DNA of 64,000 nucleotides from NCBI GenBank assembly GCA_963767505.1, contig CAVYDV010000008.1, forward strand, positions 358,937-422,936, in the 5' to 3' direction. Shown here one piece after another: positions 28,446-45,542 of the stretch (position 1 is its first letter; each line of letters opens with the position of its first letter). Source of the DNA: an uncultured Thermoleophilia bacterium (lineage in GTDB: Bacteria; Actinomycetota; Thermoleophilia; UBA2241). The translations under genes and the position numbers were made by a program. The notes below the pieces were generated by a model that was not told the DNA's origin, did not search any database, and saw nothing but the letters and a program-made list of their open reading frames with translations.

Positions 28446-28617
28446 GGCGCAGCTCGACCTTGTGCGTGACCTCGTGGCATTCTCGAGCCAACATGTCTAC
28501 ATAGGGAGCCCGTTCGTCGACTCATTCGTGGATGAGCCGAGAGGGCACCCACCTGCAAGAGCAGGTTCGAGAATAAAGCGAGCACGGCAAGGTGGAGCAA
28601 TTCACTAGGGAGGATGC

Positions 28618-38831: not shown

Positions 38832-39641
38832 ATGGGCGACCCCGTAGCGCACTCGCTGTCGCCGGCGGTCCACAACGCCGCCTTCGCAGCAGCGGGCCTC
38901 GACATGGTCTACGTGCCGCTGCCGGTGCGCGCCCAGGACGTCGGCGCCGCGGTCAACGGCCTTGTCGCCCTTGGCTTCCGCGGCGCCAACGTGACCGTCC
39001 CTCACAAGGGAGCCGTGATCCCGTGGCTCGACTGGCTCGACGACGACGCCCGCCTCGCGCAGGCGGTCAACACGATCGTCGTCGAAGATGGCGTGCTACG
39101 CGGCTACAACACCGATATCGACGGCGCACGCACGGCGCTGGTCGGCGTATGCGGAGACTCCTTGCGCGGCTCCCGCGCCCTTGTCCTCGGAGCCGGGGGC
39201 GCCGCGAGAGGTGTCGCGCTGGCGCTGGCGAGGCTGGGCGCCGTGCTCACGGTCGTGAATCGTACCGGCGCTGGAGCCGAGCGCCTCGCCGCGCTCGCCG
39301 AAGCCGGCGTGCCCGGCGCCGCCTGCCGCTGGCTTCCCCTCGACGAACTCACGCCGGCGGATGTCGCGCAGCAGAGCCTGCTTGTCAATGCGACCTCCCT
39401 CGGGATGACAGGAGCAGGTAAAGTCCCCGCGTCGTTGGTCGATACAGTGTCAGCAGGGCAAGTCGTATTCGATGTTGTGTACGGCCGCACGGAGACAGAT
39501 CTGCTGCGGCAGGCGCGCAGCCGGGGGGCCCAGACGGTGGACGGCAAAGCCATGTTTCTGGCCCAGGCGATTGGGGCCTTCCGACTCTGGACGGGTCAGG
39601 CGCCACCGGCAGACGTGATGCAGACTGCACTGAACTCATGA
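38832..39641 (+). CDS. aroE: Shikimate dehydrogenase; homology appears to extend upstream of the first ATG
   Basis: GDPVAHSLSPAVHNAAF and NVTVPHK. The in-frame upstream codons read ..TQVIGIM, the usual beta-1 strand, but lack a canonical start. TTG 38771 is in another frame. The stop overlaps the pilB ATG. Confidence 0.85.
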   Translation: MGDPVAHSLSPAVHNAAFAAAGLDMVYVPLPVRAQDVGAAVNGLVALGFRGANVTVPHKGAVIPWLDWLDDDARLAQAVNTIVVEDGVLRGYNTDIDGARTALVGVCGDSLRGSRALVLGAGGAARGVALALARLGAVLTVVNRTGAGAERLAALAEAGVPGAACRWLPLDELTPADVAQQSLLVNATSLGMTGAGKVPASLVDTVSAGQVVFDVVYGRTETDLLRQARSRGAQTVDGKAMFLAQAIGAFRLWTGQAPPADVMQTALNS

Positions 39642-41533
39642 GCAAATCGGGAAGTGGGGACTTGGAGTCCACGACGTTCGACACTGACGAGGGCATCGCC
39701 GTCGACGAGGCGATCGTCCTGCTCGAGCAGCCCGAAGTCGAGAGGCTCGACCTGCCGGCGAGTGATTCCGTGCCCGAAGCCAATGGGAACGGCTCCAACG
39801 GCGAGCGTGGAGTGACCACCGCCGATGCCTTGGACGGCTTCGTGCGCACGCAGCGCGCCTCCAAGCTCAGCCTCGGCGACATCCTCAAGGACATGGGTCT
39901 CGCGACAGAGAAGCAGATCACGACGGCGTTGGCGAAGCAGAAGGAGACGCGGCAACGCATCGGCCAGATCCTCATCGATGACGGCTCGATCAGTCAGCTC
40001 GATCTGACGAAGGCCCTGGCCAACAAGTTCGGCGTAGCCTTCCTCGACCTCTCGGACACGACCCTCGAACCCGCCGCCGCCGGAACGATCGACGAGAAGC
40101 TGGCGCGACGGTACGGCGCTGCGCCCATACGCTATGTAGACGAGAACACGCTGCTCGTCGCCATGGTCGACCCCCAGAATCTGCTGGCGCTCCAGGACCT
40201 CGAGATCATCACCGGCTACGGCATCCAGGCGGCGATCGCCAGCGAGGAGGACGTGTACGGCGCCATCTCCAAGATCTACCGCGACCGCCCCGAGGTCGAT
40301 CTGGACGAGGCCGACCTGGCAGACCTGGACGACGGCGCCGACGTCGCCGACATCCGCGACGCCACCGATGAGGCGCCGATCGTCAAGCTGGTGAACTCGA
40401 TCATCGCCCAGGCTGTCGACGACGGCGCCAGCGACATCCACTTCGAGCCGCAGATGAAGGAGCTCTCGATCCGCTTCCGCATCGACGGCGTGCTGCAAGA
40501 GATCATGTCGGTCCCGCGGCGCATGCTGAGCGGCGTCATCAGCCGCCTCAAGATCATGGCCGACCTCGACATCGCCGAGCGCCGCGTTCCGCAGGACGGT
40601 CGAATCGGCCTCATGGTCGGCGGCCGGCCCATCGACATGCGTGTCGCCACTCTGCCGACCGTCTACGGCGAGAAGATCGTCATGCGCCTCCTCGACAAGT
40701 CCAACGTCATGCTCGACCTCGAGGATCTGGGCTTCTCGGAGAAGGCGCTGAAGCGCTTCCGCGGGTCGTTCACGAAGCCCTACGGCGCCATCCTGGTGAC
40801 GGGGCCCACCGGCTCCGGCAAGTCGACGACGCTGTACGCGGCGCTCAACATCCTCAACTCCACCGAGAAGAACATCATCACCGTCGAGGATCCGGTCGAG
40901 TACCGCCTCGGCGGCATCAACCAGGTCCAGGTCAACACGCGCGCCGGGATGACCTTCGCCGCCGCGCTGCGCTCGATCCTGCGCTGCGACCCCGACATCG
41001 TGATGATCGGCGAGATCCGCGACCGCGAGACGGCGCAGATCGCCGTCGAATCGGCGCTCACCGGACACCTCGTGCTCAGCACGCTCCACACCAACGATGC
41101 CCCTGGGGCGCTCTCGCGGCTCACCGAGATGGGCATCGAGCCGTTCCTCTCGTCTTCGGCGGTCGATTGCGTGCTGGCCCAGCGCCTCGCGAGACGCCTC
41201 TGCACGGTCTGCAAGGAGCCCTACACTGCGACGCGCGAGATGCTGCGCAAGAACGACTTCCCCGCCGAAGTGTGGGAGCGCGACGATGTCGTCCTGCATC
41301 GCGCCAAGGGCTGCCCGCGGTGCAAGAACACGGGCTACAAGGGGCGTCTCGGCCTCTACGAGGTGATGATCGTGAGCGAGGCGATCCGCCGATTGACCGT
41401 GGAGCGCAAGAGCGCCGACGAGATCTCCCGGGTGGCCAAGGCGGAGGGCATGAAGAGCCTTCGCGAGGACGGCATCGACAAGGTACTGCAAGGGGCGACC
41501 TCCTTCGAGGAGATCGCCCGCGTCATCATCTGA
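39638..41533 (+). CDS. pilB: Type IV pilus assembly ATPase PilB (GspE family) with MshEN-like N-terminal domain
   Basis: Intact 631 aa. Walker A GPTGSGKST, Asp box, Walker B, His box, tetracysteine CTVCKEPY..CPRCKNTGYKGR. The N-terminal T2SSE_N region has two 24-aa motifs (aa 78-101 and 107-130). Confidence 0.9.
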   Translation: MSKSGSGDLESTTFDTDEGIAVDEAIVLLEQPEVERLDLPASDSVPEANGNGSNGERGVTTADALDGFVRTQRASKLSLGDILKDMGLATEKQITTALAKQKETRQRIGQILIDDGSISQLDLTKALANKFGVAFLDLSDTTLEPAAAGTIDEKLARRYGAAPIRYVDENTLLVAMVDPQNLLALQDLEIITGYGIQAAIASEEDVYGAISKIYRDRPEVDLDEADLADLDDGADVADIRDATDEAPIVKLVNSIIAQAVDDGASDIHFEPQMKELSIRFRIDGVLQEIMSVPRRMLSGVISRLKIMADLDIAERRVPQDGRIGLMVGGRPIDMRVATLPTVYGEKIVMRLLDKSNVMLDLEDLGFSEKALKRFRGSFTKPYGAILVTGPTGSGKSTTLYAALNILNSTEKNIITVEDPVEYRLGGINQVQVNTRAGMTFAAALRSILRCDPDIVMIGEIRDRETAQIAVESALTGHLVLSTLHTNDAPGALSRLTEMGIEPFLSSSAVDCVLAQRLARRLCTVCKEPYTATREMLRKNDFPAEVWERDDVVLHRAKGCPRCKNTGYKGRLGLYEVMIVSEAIRRLTVERKSADEISRVAKAEGMKSLREDGIDKVLQGATSFEEIARVII

Positions 41534-41555: not shown

Positions 41556-42630
41556 ATGGATCTGGTCGACGTCCTTCTCGAGGTCCTGGAACGCGATGCC
41601 AGCGACCTGCACCTCTCGGTGGGGTCGCCGCCCATCATCCGCATCAACGGCGCGCTCGAGCGGCTCGACTACCCGAGGCTCGAGGCCAACGACACCCGCG
41701 AGCTCATCTACAGCATCCTCTCGCAGGACCAGCGCCAGCGCCTCGAGAACGAGTGGGAGATCGACTTCTCGTACTCGGTCCCGGGCAGAGCGCGCTTCCG
41801 CGTCAACGCCTTCTTCCAGCGCAACAGCCTGGGAGCGGCCTTCCGCCTGATCCCCATCCAGATCAGGCCGCTCGAGGAGCTCGGTCTGCCCAAGGCGCTG
41901 CACGAGCTCACCAGGAAGCCGCGCGGCTTCGTCATCGTCACCGGGCCGACCGGCTCGGGCAAGTCGACGACGCTGGCGGCGATGATCGACGAGATCAACG
42001 AGACACGCGACGAGCACATCATGACGATCGAGGACCCCATCGAGTTCCTCCATCGCCACAAGAAGTGCATGGTGAACCAGCGCGAGGTGGGCGCCGACAC
42101 CAAGGGCTTCAACCGCGCCCTCAAGAGCGTTCTGCGCCAGGACCCGGACATCATCCTGGTCGGCGAGATGCGCGACACCGAGACGATGGCCACGGCGCTG
42201 ACCGCGGCCGAGACCGGGCACCTCGTCTTCGCGACCCTGCACACCCAGGACGCGCCGCAGACGATCGACCGCATCATCGACGTCTTCCCGCCGCACCAGC
42301 AGGAGCAGGTCCGCGTGCAGCTCTCGACCACCCTGATGGGCGTCTGCACGCAGCAGCTGCTGCCGACCCGCGACGGGCGCGGTCGCGTCGTCGCCTGCGA
42401 GGTCCTCATGCCGACGCCCGCGGTGCGCAACCTCATCCGCGAGGGCAAGACGCACCAGATCTACTCGGCCATGCAGACGGGGTCGGCCTTCGGCATGCAG
42501 ACGATGGACGCGGCGCTCGCCGACCTGGTGCGCCGCAACATCATCAGTCGCGAGCTGGCCATGCATCGCTCCAGCGACCCGAACGGGCTGGAGCGGCTGG
42601 TCGGGCAACCAGTGCCCGATGGGGGTCTAA
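41556..42630 (+). CDS. pilT: Type IV pilus retraction ATPase PilT; the 3' end needs a 1-nt correction in a G5 run
   Basis: SDLHLSVGSPPIIRINGAL, Walker A GPTGSGKST, GEMRD, AETGHLVFATLHT, ..VRNLIREGK. The frame reads on into pilC unless G5 (42621-42625) is G4. That would give ..PVPDGV-TAA (42628-42630), followed by GGGAGGA and the pilC ATG. Confidence 0.85.
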
Positions 42631-42639
42631 GGGAGGATC

Positions 42640-43854
42640 ATGAGCACCTTCGCCTACAAGGCGCTCGACGCCAGAGGCATGGCCGCGGGCGGACAGATCG
42701 ACGGTGCCAGCAAGGCCGCCGCGGCCGCTGCCCTGCGTCACCGGGGCCTCACCGTCCTCGACCTCAACGAGGTCAAGCGCGGCATCGGGCAGATCGAGAC
42801 TCGGCGGTCGCATCAAGCCCAAGGACCTGACCATCTTCTCGCGGCAGTTCGCGACCATGGTCAACTCGGGTCTCTCGATGCTGCGCTGTCTCTACGTGCT
42901 CGAGGAGCAGACGCAGAACAAGAAGCTCGCCAAGGTCGATCGGCGCCGTGCGCGCCGACGTCGAGGCCGGCATCATCCTGTCGGACGCGCTCGAGAAGCA
43001 CCCCAAGGTGTTCAGCCGGCTCTACGTCAGCATGGTCCGCGCCGGAGAGGTCGGCGGCATCCTCGATGAGGTGCTCAACCGCCTGGCGACCCAGCTGGAG
43101 AAGGAAGACAGCATCCGCCGCGCCGTCAAGTCGGCCATGGTGTACCCGGTGGTCATCGGCGTGTTCGCCATCCTCGTCCTGGTCGGCATGGTGATGTTCC
43201 TCATCCCCATCTTCGCCGGCATGTACAAGGAACTCGGGGACGCCGAGCTGCCGCTCCTCACGCGTATCATGGTGGGCCTCTCGGAGATCTTCCGCAGCTG
43301 GTGGGGTCTCGTCATCCTGGGTGTGATCATCCTCCTCATCTGGGTCGTCGCCCGGCTCAAGCGCACGCGAGAAGGGCGCCATGGTGTGGGACCGCTTCAA
43401 GCTGCGCATCCCCATGGGCATCGGCCAGATCGTCCGCAAGCTCGCCATCGCGCGCTTCTCGCGCACCCTGGGCACGCTCATCTCTTCCGGCGTGCCCATC
43501 CTCCAGGCTATCGAGATCACCGGCCAGGCAGCCGGCAACGCCGTCATCGAGCACGCCATGAAGGATGTGCAGCAGAGCGTCAAGGAGGGCGAGCCGATCA
43601 CCACCCCTCTCGAGAAGGTCTCGGTGTTCCCGCCCATGGTCACGCAGATGATCGCCGTGGGCGAGGAGACGGGCTCGCTCGACGCCATGCTGGGCAAGAT
43701 CGCCGACTTCTACGAGGACGAGGTCAACGCCAGCATCAAGTCGCTCACCTCGATCATCGAGCCCATCCTCATGCTCGGCGTCGGCATCATCGTCGGCATC
43801 GTCGTCATCTCGATGTACCTGCCGATCTTCAACATGATGAACATCGTCAAGTAG
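42640..43854 (+). CDS. pilC: Type IV pilus inner-membrane platform protein PilC (GspF family); 3 frame breaks
   Basis: MSTFAYKALDARG.., two GspF repeats (..LTIFSRQFATMVNSGLSMLRCL.., ..IARFSRTLGTLISSGVPILQAI.., PPMVTQMIAVGEETGSLD). Breaks at ~42795, ~42940 and ~43378. Confidence 0.85.
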
Positions 43855-43873: not shown

Positions 43874-44615
43874 GTGGAGAACGAGCAGCTGATCGCCGGA
43901 TATGCGACGAGCGGGTCGGCCGCGGCGCTCGACGAACTCGTCCGCCGCAACCAGAACCTGCTGCACCATATCCTCAAGCGTTTCGCGTACGCCAACGAGT
44001 CCTACGAGGACCTTCTGCAGGTCGCCAATCTGGGGCTCATCAAGGCGGCACAGCGCTACGACGCCACACGGGGCACGCGCTTCTCGACCTATGCGACGGC
44101 GATCATCGACGGCGAGTTGCGCCACCATCTGCGCGACTCGCTGCTCCTGCGACAACCTCGCTGGGTCAAGAAGGTCTACGCCGATATCCAGGTCAAGTCG
44201 AACGAGCTCATGCACAAGCTCGGCCGGGCTCCGGAGCTGGGCGAGATCGCGGCGGCTCTGAACATCGACGAAGACGGCATCCTCGAGGTCATGCGCCTCT
44301 ACGCGCGCATCGATCTGCACAGCCAGAACGAGCCGTACAGCGGCGACGACATGGGCATCGAGGCAGATCGCCAGTCCGTACGGGCCCTGCGGCAGGAGTC
44401 GTTCGCGCTGCCCATCGAGGACCGGATCGTCCTCTACGACGCTCTCGACACTCTCACTGGGTTCCAGCGTCGGCTCGTCTACCTCCTCTTCTTCAAGCAA
44501 CTCACGCAGTCCGAGGTCGCAGACCTGCTCGGCTTGAGTCGAAGGTCTCGCGCGAGCAGATCAAGCTGCTCGCACGACTTCGCCAAGCGTCTGCGCGGCT
44601 GGCCGCTTCACGATA
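43874..44615 (+). CDS. Group-3 sigma-70 family factor (FliA/SigD/WhiG-SigF-like) encoded inside the pilus cluster; one frame break (~44537)
   Basis: Region 2 (YEDLLQVANLGLIKAAQRYDATRGTRFSTYATAIIDGELRHHLRD), region 3 (LGRAPELGEIAAALNIDEDG), region 4 (RRLVYLLFFKQLTQSEVADLLGLS | KVSREQIKLLARLRQ..). Corrected stop TAG 44613-44615. GTG lies 19 nt after the pilC stop. Confidence 0.8.
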
Positions 44616-44855: not shown

Positions 44856-44883
44856 TAAAGTGTCAACACGCGATTGCCGAAAG
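44856..44883 (+). promoter_or_regulatory. Candidate sigma-28-type promoter TAAAG-N15-GCCGAAAG upstream of the pilA leader
   Basis: TAAA at 44856-44859, a 16-nt spacer, then GCCGAAAG at 44876-44883 (consensus TAAA-N15-GCCGATAA). A second copy with identical spacing is at 51830-51857. Confidence 0.5.
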
Positions 44884-44919: not shown

Positions 44920-45000
44920 CGAAAGCGATAAAGGCAAACCACCCGCGAGGGTGGGGCGCAAAGCTACAGGACTCACAGAGTCGGCTGAGCTGCCGCTACA
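44920..45000 (+). promoter_or_regulatory. Candidate c-di-GMP-I (GEMM-I) riboswitch aptamer in the pilA 5' leader
   Basis: GGCAAACC (44933-44940). Helix CCACCC/GGGTGG capped by GNRA loop GCGA (44939-44954). GGCGCAAAGC (44955-44964). A 12-bp second hairpin (44962-44991). Closing pairs GGC/GCC and AGC/GCT. Confidence 0.65.
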
Positions 45001-45155
45001 GGAGCGTTCAACAAAGCCTGTGAAGCCCGGCCGCGCCAAGCCAGAGCTTCGCAGGCTTCTTCTGTGGGGTCCGCGCAGGAAGCAGGGTCGGCAAGTCGTA
45101 CTACGCAGTCGTGTACATGTGGGGCAACGCACCAACAGAGAGGAGATGGCAGAAC

Positions 45156-45542
45156 ATGAAGCGTTTCACCAAAAAGCAGGGGGGCTTCACCCTCATCGAG
45201 CTCCTGATCGTGATCATCATCATCGGCATCCTCGCCGCGATCGCGATCCCGATGTTCCTCAACCAGCGCACCAAGGCCAAGGACGCAGGCGTCAAGGAAG
45301 GCACGCACAGCATCCAGATCGGCGTGCAGAGCTACGCCGTCGACAACAACGACGTCTATCCGCTGACCGCCACCATCGTCGCCGACGTCACGCCTCAGCT
45401 CGACCCGTGGCCGGACAACTCGTTCACCGGTGCCGCTATGGCCAACGACGGCGCCTTGGGCAACTTCACCTACGCGTCTGTCGCCGGAGCCGACTACACG
45501 CTCCTGGGTGTCTTGAGCGGCGGCAACTTCGTGGTGCGCTAG
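45156..45542 (+). CDS. pilA: Type IV major pilin (class III signal peptide)
   Basis: MKRFTKKQG|GFTLIELLIVIIIIGILAAIAIP shows a prepilin leader, cleavage-site Gly, Phe+1 and Glu+5. RBS AGAGAGGAG. 128 aa. Confidence 0.92.
   Translation: MKRFTKKQGGFTLIELLIVIIIIGILAAIAIPMFLNQRTKAKDAGVKEGTHSIQIGVQSYAVDNNDVYPLTATIVADVTPQLDPWPDNSFTGAAMANDGALGNFTYASVAGADYTLLGVLSGGNFVVR

Follow-up and report, generated by a model that had tools for sequence, protein, structure and literature searches.

A predicted c-di-GMP receptor domain of the MshEN type on the PilB pilus motor of an uncultured Thermoleophilia bacterium

Several of the ATPases that build type IV pili have been found to bind cyclic di-GMP (c-di-GMP) through MshEN (GSPII) domains. 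In Vibrio cholerae MshE (structure 5HTL; PMC5013675, PMC4624772) the domain forms the N-terminal part of an ATPase for pilus extension; Thermus thermophilus PilF (PMC11731258), a type IV pilus assembly ATPase, has three GSPII domains in tandem; and Myxococcus xanthus PilB, Chloracidobacterium thermophilum PilB and Clostridium perfringens PilB2 (PMC11656802), the last a Gram-positive precedent, each have one at the N-terminus and bind c-di-GMP. The MshEN proteins counted in Wang et al. 2016 (PMC5013675) exceed 10,000, and their Supplementary Table 5 includes actinobacteria, Rubrobacter xylanophilus among them, in which MshEN is the sole c-di-GMP protein receptor known. Here we analyze a stretch of 64,000 nucleotides ("the window") from an uncultured Thermoleophilia bacterium (GenBank assembly GCA_963767505.1, contig CAVYDV010000008.1, positions 358,937 to 422,936 of the forward strand). 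Its pilB gene (39638..41533; it and all its parts given below are on the + strand) encodes a type IVa pilus extension ATPase of 631 residues, recognized by its open reading frame, hidden Markov model (HMM) matches, catalytic motifs and gene context. We judge it probable that residues 78-218 of this PilB are an MshEN (GSPII) domain whose N-terminal bundle (residues 78-130) is a predicted c-di-GMP receptor of the MshE/PilF type, carried by an intact ATPase. Because MshEN domains on PilB-type motors are already well established and a curated NCBI model of the motif exists, the finding mainly corrects the annotation of this gene; it also gives early-branching Actinomycetota, in which the published work concerns the RsiG-WhiG transcriptional switch only, a predicted direct sensor of c-di-GMP at the pilus motor.

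The PilB domain shares with MshE the arrangement of two 24-residue motifs around a five-residue spacer (24 + 5 + 24), the fold and the N-terminal location, and it has equivalents of the MshE glycine pair, the six residues of its two hydrophobic triads, Q32 and R38. It differs at R9 (Ser78), V15 (Lys84), F48 (Ser117, a variable site) and Q61 (Lys130), the V15 and Q61 changes being clade-wide, and in having a 77-residue acidic extension ahead of the domain and a monoderm actinobacterium as its host. Unlike PilF it has a single GSPII domain, and while PilF demonstrates that residues other than Arg (K, L and P) can stand at the first motif position, the Ser of the window PilB is neither hydrophobic nor basic. 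The M. xanthus, C. thermophilum and C. perfringens proteins resemble it in domain number and placement but belong to other phyla, and no c-di-GMP riboswitch has been reported on a pilin gene of the same cluster in those bacteria. The riboswitch of Clostridioides difficile pilA1 belongs to c-di-GMP class II, whereas the aptamer in the window (below) is of class I. C. difficile, again of a different phylum, is a precedent for control of pilin mRNA through a riboswitch together with predicted control of the motor; ligand turns expression on at its pilA1 riboswitch (PMC11656802), and its PilB resembles c-di-GMP-binding orthologues (PMC11656802, PMC8653836).

The first motif occupies PilB residues 78-101 (SLGDILKDMGLATEKQITTALAKQ; 39869..39940) and corresponds to MshE 9-32, the spacer KETRQ occupies residues 102-106 (39941..39955; KNTGR in MshE, and T104 is invariant in the clade), and the second motif occupies residues 107-130 (RIGQILIDDGSISQLDLTKALANK; 39956..40027) and corresponds to MshE 38-61; both motifs align with the 5HTL sequence without gaps, and the resulting 53 residues have the layout that MshEN_N requires. 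An earlier reading made from the letters alone (the sequence-only reading) had placed these elements at 39869-40027, and translation of the window showed its nucleotide and residue positions to be exact; its five-residue spacer between two 24-residue motifs was likewise borne out by the gapless alignment of PilB 78-130 to MshE 9-61. It had further held that the stretch fits the published MshEN pattern, the second motif nearly perfectly. The layout does fit, but regular expressions found no match in either motif to the strict pattern, RLGxx(L/V/I)(L/V/I)xxG(L/V/I/F)(L/V/I)xxxxLxxxLxxQ, or to the relaxed one that Wang et al. 2016 (PMC5013675) describe in their Methods, [RKPN]hGxxhhxx[GAS]hhxxxxhxxxhxx[QNKRYWST]. 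On the 22 positions that the strict pattern specifies over the two motifs PilB agrees at 15 (motif 1 contributing 7/11 and motif 2 the other 8/11), and "nearly perfect" was too generous for a second motif that reaches 8/11 strict and 10/11 relaxed positions, with a Ser at position 11. The description of motif 1 as partly degenerate was correct: Ser is at position 1 and Lys at position 7, and L79, G80, I94, L98 and Q101 are retained. Motif 2 retains R107, I108, G109, L123 and L127, and has K130 in place of Gln.

Matching to the published patterns was replaced by position scoring and a curated HMM as follows. NCBIfam model NF053729 ("c-di-GMP_motif", 53 positions, cut-off 38 bits) matches PilB residues 79-129 with 53 bits and E = 2e-14 (55.9 bits in a genome scan); five PilB relatives score 59-71 bits, so the window PilB is the lowest of the six tested. 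The frequency of such a motif by chance was estimated by scoring 5.07 million 53-residue windows from the six-frame translation of the genome on the 22 strict-pattern positions. PilB is the second best of these windows; the others above 12 positions are one at 18 and one at 14, with none at 13. Because of the curated HMM score and the six-frame scan together, we consider the PilB motif to be far beyond chance. A match to the Pfam MshEN/T2SSE_N models, the check that had been suggested for this region, was indeed obtained, but PF05157 covers residues 131-218, downstream of the motifs. We rejected the Pfam "MshEN" match as evidence for the motif itself, as it covers only this C-terminal subdomain.

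The three-dimensional structure predicted for the region is closest to that of MshE. An AlphaFold2 model of PilB residues 66-232 has a mean predicted local distance difference test score (pLDDT) of 85, above 90 through the domain and below 50 at the first residues of the modelled piece, and it has four helices (residues 79-85, 91-104, 108-114 and 120-131) followed by an alpha/beta subdomain. Its top Foldseek match in the Protein Data Bank (PDB) is 5HTL, MshE with bound c-di-GMP (template modelling (TM) score 0.83, root-mean-square deviation 2.4 A, 33% identity), and the next is ligand-bound PilF GSPII-B (TM 0.82). Reported non-binders are lower, XpsE at TM 0.55-0.66 and the N-terminal part of Xanthomonas citri PilB at 0.70-0.73; XpsE has lost c-di-GMP binding (Wang et al. 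2016, PMC5013675), and X. citri PilB works via PilZ-FimX. A PDB search with the PilB sequence recovered PilF, Geobacter PilB and MshE.

The residues that matter most for binding in MshE can be paired directly with PilB residues in the gap-free alignment: S78=R9, L79=L10, G80=G11, I94=L25, L98=L29 and Q101=Q32 in motif 1, and R107=R38, I108=L39, G109=G40, L123=L54, L127=L58 and K130=Q61 in motif 2. Replacement of MshE G11 or G40 abolishes binding (Wang et al. 2016, PMC5013675), and PilB keeps this glycine, position 3, in each motif (G80 and G109), with no variation among 121 PilB homologues. The same study defined the MshE triads L10+L54+L58 and L39+L25+L29; both are present in PilB as L79+L123+L127 and I108+I94+L98, and these residues stay L, I or V across the clade. 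None of the changes associated with the XpsE-type loss (G11V, R38G, G40L, L54H, L58C and Q61V; Wang et al., PMC5013675) is found in PilB. The residues invariant in the 121 homologues are G80, L83, L88, Q101, T104, R107, G109, L112, L127 and K130. By identity, fold and conservation the domain is thus an MshEN domain, and all the computational tests that we ran concur in supporting an MshEN_N module of the c-di-GMP type on an intact PilB.

The remainder of the protein is that of an intact motor in its sequence features. The pilB start codon overlaps the aroE stop codon (ATGA). Residues 1-77 (39638..39868) are a variable acidic N-terminal extension, probably disordered, judging from the low pLDDT and from homologues of 583-680 residues in which the extension length varies. 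The C-terminal MshEN subdomain (residues 131-218; 40028..40291; PF05157, 67 bits) is modelled with pLDDT above 90, and the ATPase core (N2D plus C-terminal domain, residues 242-628; 40361..41521) matches PF00437 (T2SSE) with 485 bits. The catalytic set is complete: Walker A GPTGSGKST at residue 389, Asp box EDPVE at 417, Walker B DPDIVMIGEIRD at 451, His box TGHLVLSTLH at 475 and a zinc site, CTVC...CPRC (CxxC...CxxC), at 522. TIGR02538 is the top-scoring NCBIfam family for PilB, and the score, 649 bits, is slightly below the equivalog cut-off of 675.65; the five tested relatives also score 633-662 bits, and the shortfall looks like lineage divergence rather than a different function. PilB is the first product in the gene order pilB-pilT-pilC-sigma-pilA, which is the same in seven related metagenomic loci, where N_methyl pilin genes stand at the pilA position. 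The named homologues of PilB are proteins of "Thermoleophilia bacterium" metagenome-assembled genomes.

That the PilB domain binds c-di-GMP, and with what affinity and sign, we infer. By homology one extended c-di-GMP molecule would lie across the two triads, with the backbone amides of G80-D81 and of G109-Q110 keeping it in place and Q101 and K130 at its ribose-phosphates. R107 would cap one guanine; for the other guanine nearly all relatives offer an Arg as the cap, and this assembly a Ser. Binding would then license or stabilize PilB for pilus extension, as with V. cholerae MshE, T. thermophilus PilF and M. xanthus PilB.

PilB is coupled in the genome to a c-di-GMP-I (GEMM-I) aptamer in the pilA leader (44924..44998, + strand), which has a canonical core and lies ahead of pilA (45156..45542, + strand), an open reading frame for the major pilin with a class III signal sequence (MKRFTKKQGGFTLIELL...). 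The aptamer scores 63.7 bits on RF01051 (gathering score 35) and 66.9 bits on RF03167 (c-di-GMP-I-GGC; cut-off 59). In spite of the latter score, the window aptamer and 10 related aptamers, all containing GCGCAAAGC, have the canonical A in the column where the RF03167 consensus has its diagnostic G (model position 37); we take this A to be A47 of the c-di-GMP-I riboswitch. A GGC variant with possibly another ligand was accordingly considered and rejected, the 11 aligned aptamers and both consensus lines showing the canonical A. In the related loci the Rfam label flips between RF03167 and RF01051 for near-identical aptamers, and because the diagnostic base is the canonical A, the GGC label is an artefact of model competition within one clan. 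An A at the position that we equate with G20 marks cGAMP-sensing variants (cGAMP, cyclic GMP-AMP); the window aptamer appears to have G there. A consensus scan of the + strand of the pilA leader found no intrinsic terminator, and a long hairpin at about 45015-45059 appears in ViennaRNA folds whether the aptamer constraint is on or off.

No second aptamer of this kind was found in the 78%-complete genome. All seven related loci, fetched through their PilB homologues, have one or two such aptamers ahead of pilin genes, and 17 of 60 other species-level genomes of the class have an MshEN-PilB that is followed on its own strand, 4-6.5 kb downstream, by an RF01051 match. By family, aptamer and MshEN-PilB occur together in 6/10 members of the window's family, in 10/10 of a second and in one of a third. 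The suggestion of the sequence-only reading that c-di-GMP acts at two levels, on pilin mRNA and on the assembly motor, therefore stands, given the canonical c-di-GMP-I core and the pairing with MshEN-PilB in 7/7 loci and two families, and the co-inheritance of motor sensor and pilin-leader riboswitch in at least two families makes this a multi-layer circuit open to testing. In family f6 (G006-G060) motif 1 of PilB starts with Pro and motif 2 ends with Arg, and a c-di-GMP-I aptamer is about 5 kb downstream in 10/10 sampled genomes. In family f4 (loci L032-L049) there is no aptamer beside the best-matching pilB; in its member G052 a second PilB-like gene is followed by one about 2.3 kb downstream.

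By its 17 GGDEF and 8 EAL matches the genome both synthesizes and degrades c-di-GMP, and a profile scan of it, at 78% completeness, found no PilZ domain. Because the former are present and no PilZ was found, these matches argue for direct sensing of c-di-GMP by PilB as the economical reading, over a PilZ/FimX relay; an indirect route to PilB of the PilZ/FimX type was set aside on the same ground. Two further genes, L003 (C4:191039-192334) and L005 (C5:112155-112997), have DUF4388 (117 and 79 bits) joined to an MshEN_N-like tandem motif and are candidate additional c-di-GMP receptors in this genome without a detected PilZ.

How far does the motif depart from the canonical one, and does it matter? 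For wider comparison we used 241 MshEN_N instances, each 53 residues long and free of gaps, taken from those 148 cluster representatives that were most similar to PilB. Several observations weigh against PilB as a c-di-GMP receptor. It reaches only 19/22 positions of the relaxed pattern, missing at S78, K84 and S117. K84 displaces a hydrophobic residue of the core and K130 displaces the Gln that bonds the ribose-phosphate. Ser is rare at MshEN_N position 1, being found in 4/241 instances, and in MshE the R9A change at the site of Ser78 lowered binding by 83% (Roelofs et al. 2015, PMC4624772). Finally, PilF GSPII-A has one good motif and does not bind, so the motif alone is no guarantee (PMC11731258). 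Three of the deviations recur in natural sequences: Lys at the K84 site occurs in 13/241 instances, and 120 of 121 homologues have K, R or Q there; S117, motif 2 position 11, is a variable site with Ser in 25/241; and Lys in place of Gln at K130 occurs in 21/241, all 121 homologues having it and the wider class sample having K or R there. By these counts K84 and S117 are within natural variation.

Ser78 is different, as it is private to this assembly with respect to its nearest relatives and to the class representatives read. Codon 78 is AGC (39869..39871), while the nearest relatives have AGG and others CGN, all Arg. The 121 homologues include 119 with Arg at this position; in the class sample, with one genome per species, the 23 motifs read at position 1 have R 12 times, P 10 times and Ser once (the window); and R, P, L or K stands there in 218 of the 241 MshEN_N instances. 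A guanine-capping residue at position 1 is thus present in motif 2 (R107) and absent from motif 1. The published effects of changing this residue are of two kinds. MshE R9A did not bring back pili, attachment or biofilm formation (Roelofs et al. 2015, PMC4624772), yet changes at R9, D12 and Q32 shifted affinity at most about fivefold (Wang et al. 2016, PMC5013675), PilF GSPII-B, which has K and L at position 1 and no Arg, binds at 6 nM, and PilF GSPII-C binds with P there (PMC11731258). Because the R9A effect must be set against the fivefold limit and the Arg-free PilF GSPII-B, Ser78 probably weakens the site without destroying it; if real, it probably puts the affinity several-fold below that of sister strains, and it would be a natural variant that probes the weight of the capping residue.

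Ser78 may also not be real. That a base error or a minor allele was fixed in an error-prone metagenome assembly, the true protein being a standard MshEN-PilB with Arg78, is a serious possibility, although we lean the other way. The difference from the two nearest relatives, at 96% nucleotide identity, is the single base change AGG to AGC, and Arg is found not only in nearly all homologues but also in the same-genus genome G038. The assembly is visibly damaged nearby: relative to a same-genus genome the window has single-base insertions at 42618, 42799, 42939 and 43367 and lacks 1 nt at 44182 and 4 nt at 44540. Within 5 kb downstream of pilB, then, pilC and the sigma gene are interrupted by four or more single-base indels. 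These changes split pilC into four frame segments (42618-43854, the end of pilT and pilC) and put the sigma-factor gene (44182-44540) out of frame after residue 221 of 246, and several GGDEF/EAL matches elsewhere in the genome are also split between frames. Because the broken pilC and sigma segments still encode protein 78-93% identical to relatives, assembly error appears more likely than decay as the cause of the downstream frameshifts, and this raises the chance that AGC at codon 78 is an error as well. On the other hand, the visible errors are indels and none are substitutions, pilB is free of frameshifts over 1.9 kb, and Ser is found here in P0029 too, a lineage independent of this one, which shows that it is viable in nature. 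The assignment of the PilB domain to MshEN holds whether Ser78 is real or an artefact.

Loss or strong weakening of c-di-GMP sensing in this strain, with the fold kept as an N1 domain that only docks PilB to the pilus platform, seems unlikely to us. It would agree with the R9A phenotype, with the inability of the small, polar Ser to stack on guanine, with the lowest NF053729 score among the six clade proteins and, should the downstream frameshifts be real, with relaxed selection on the cluster. The roughly fivefold ceiling and the Arg-free 6 nM site of PilF GSPII-B speak against it, however, as do the intactness of both glycines and all six triad residues, whose loss abolishes binding, and the clade-wide occurrence of K84 and K130, which are under purifying selection along with the rest of the motif. 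Less probable still is that the motif is kept for structure only (hexamer or platform contacts) and that PilB of this clade binds no nucleotide here. There are GSPII domains that share the fold and do not bind, namely those of XpsE and X. citri PilB and PilF GSPII-A, and in family f4 of the class motif 1 has drifted to RTG or RMG and motif 2 has lost position 10, but the residues conserved in PilB are the exact ligand-contact set, including the solvent-facing R107 and Q101, non-binders typically lack the glycines or triads that PilB retains, and the PilB model is closer to the ligand-bound structures than to the non-binders. A preference of the site for another cyclic dinucleotide such as 3'3'-cGAMP is very improbable: Wang et al. 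2016 (PMC5013675) state in a heading that MshEN is able to bind cGAMP as well, but this genome is rich in GGDEF and EAL genes and the linked riboswitch apparently has G at the position equated with G20.

A c-di-GMP receptor on PilB would not necessarily be the last input to this pilus. PMC8325347 proposes that the (RsiG)2-(c-di-GMP)2-WhiG switch regulates type IV pilus genes in Rubrobacter, which belongs to a sister class, also early-branching in the Actinomycetota. That work concerns transcription initiation only, and word searches of PMC8325347 and of a 2026 follow-up preprint returned neither "PilB" nor "riboswitch". The present genome likewise has WhiG, an RsiG-like protein and a sigma-28-type promoter. 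A sigma-28/WhiG-type promoter motif, TAAA-N16-GCCGAAA, precedes the pilA leader (44856..44882, + strand), 40 nt upstream of the aptamer, and is the one match in the window against 0.01 expected. Outside the window are a WhiG/FliA sigma factor (C8:455641-456318; TIGR02479, 277 bits, cut-off 190) and an RsiG-like protein of 97 residues (about C8:486170-486460; PF22802, 51.8 bits) with the single motif EKNISRRRRVLQGKLD. From these sequence matches RsiG-WhiG with the sigma-28-type promoter is a likely third c-di-GMP input to the pilus. RsiG-bound c-di-GMP would lower transcription, whereas MshEN-bound c-di-GMP would, as is usual, promote extension; therefore the layers may differ in sign. More tentatively, one Thermoleophilia type IV pilus could be governed by three mechanistically unrelated c-di-GMP receptors within one cluster, RsiG-WhiG, the class I riboswitch of pilA and the MshEN domain of PilB, possibly of opposite signs and with R78S tuning the threshold. 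If that were true, piliation would be confined to a band or pulse of c-di-GMP (an incoherent feed-forward arrangement), and the R78S allele would be a natural tuning mutation of the motor threshold.

Three other loci were noticed in the course of the analysis. The best MshEN_N motif of the genome is at C8:209841-209999, outside the window (18/22 strict positions; NF053729, 58 bits); it reads VIGRRLVEKALIAEPQLTQALVQQ-EVHPR-PLGTLLVERGFVAESDLREVLSRQ and lies in an open frame of 229 codons whose flanks are apparently out of frame. A second PilB/GspE-like ATPase gene (C8:942192-943964) has half a motif only (QRLGEVLVGDGAIAEQEIIAAVAGQ), and its frame breaks after the Asp-box region. Within the window, a 6S RNA is found at 28449-28602 (RF00013, 79.9 bits).

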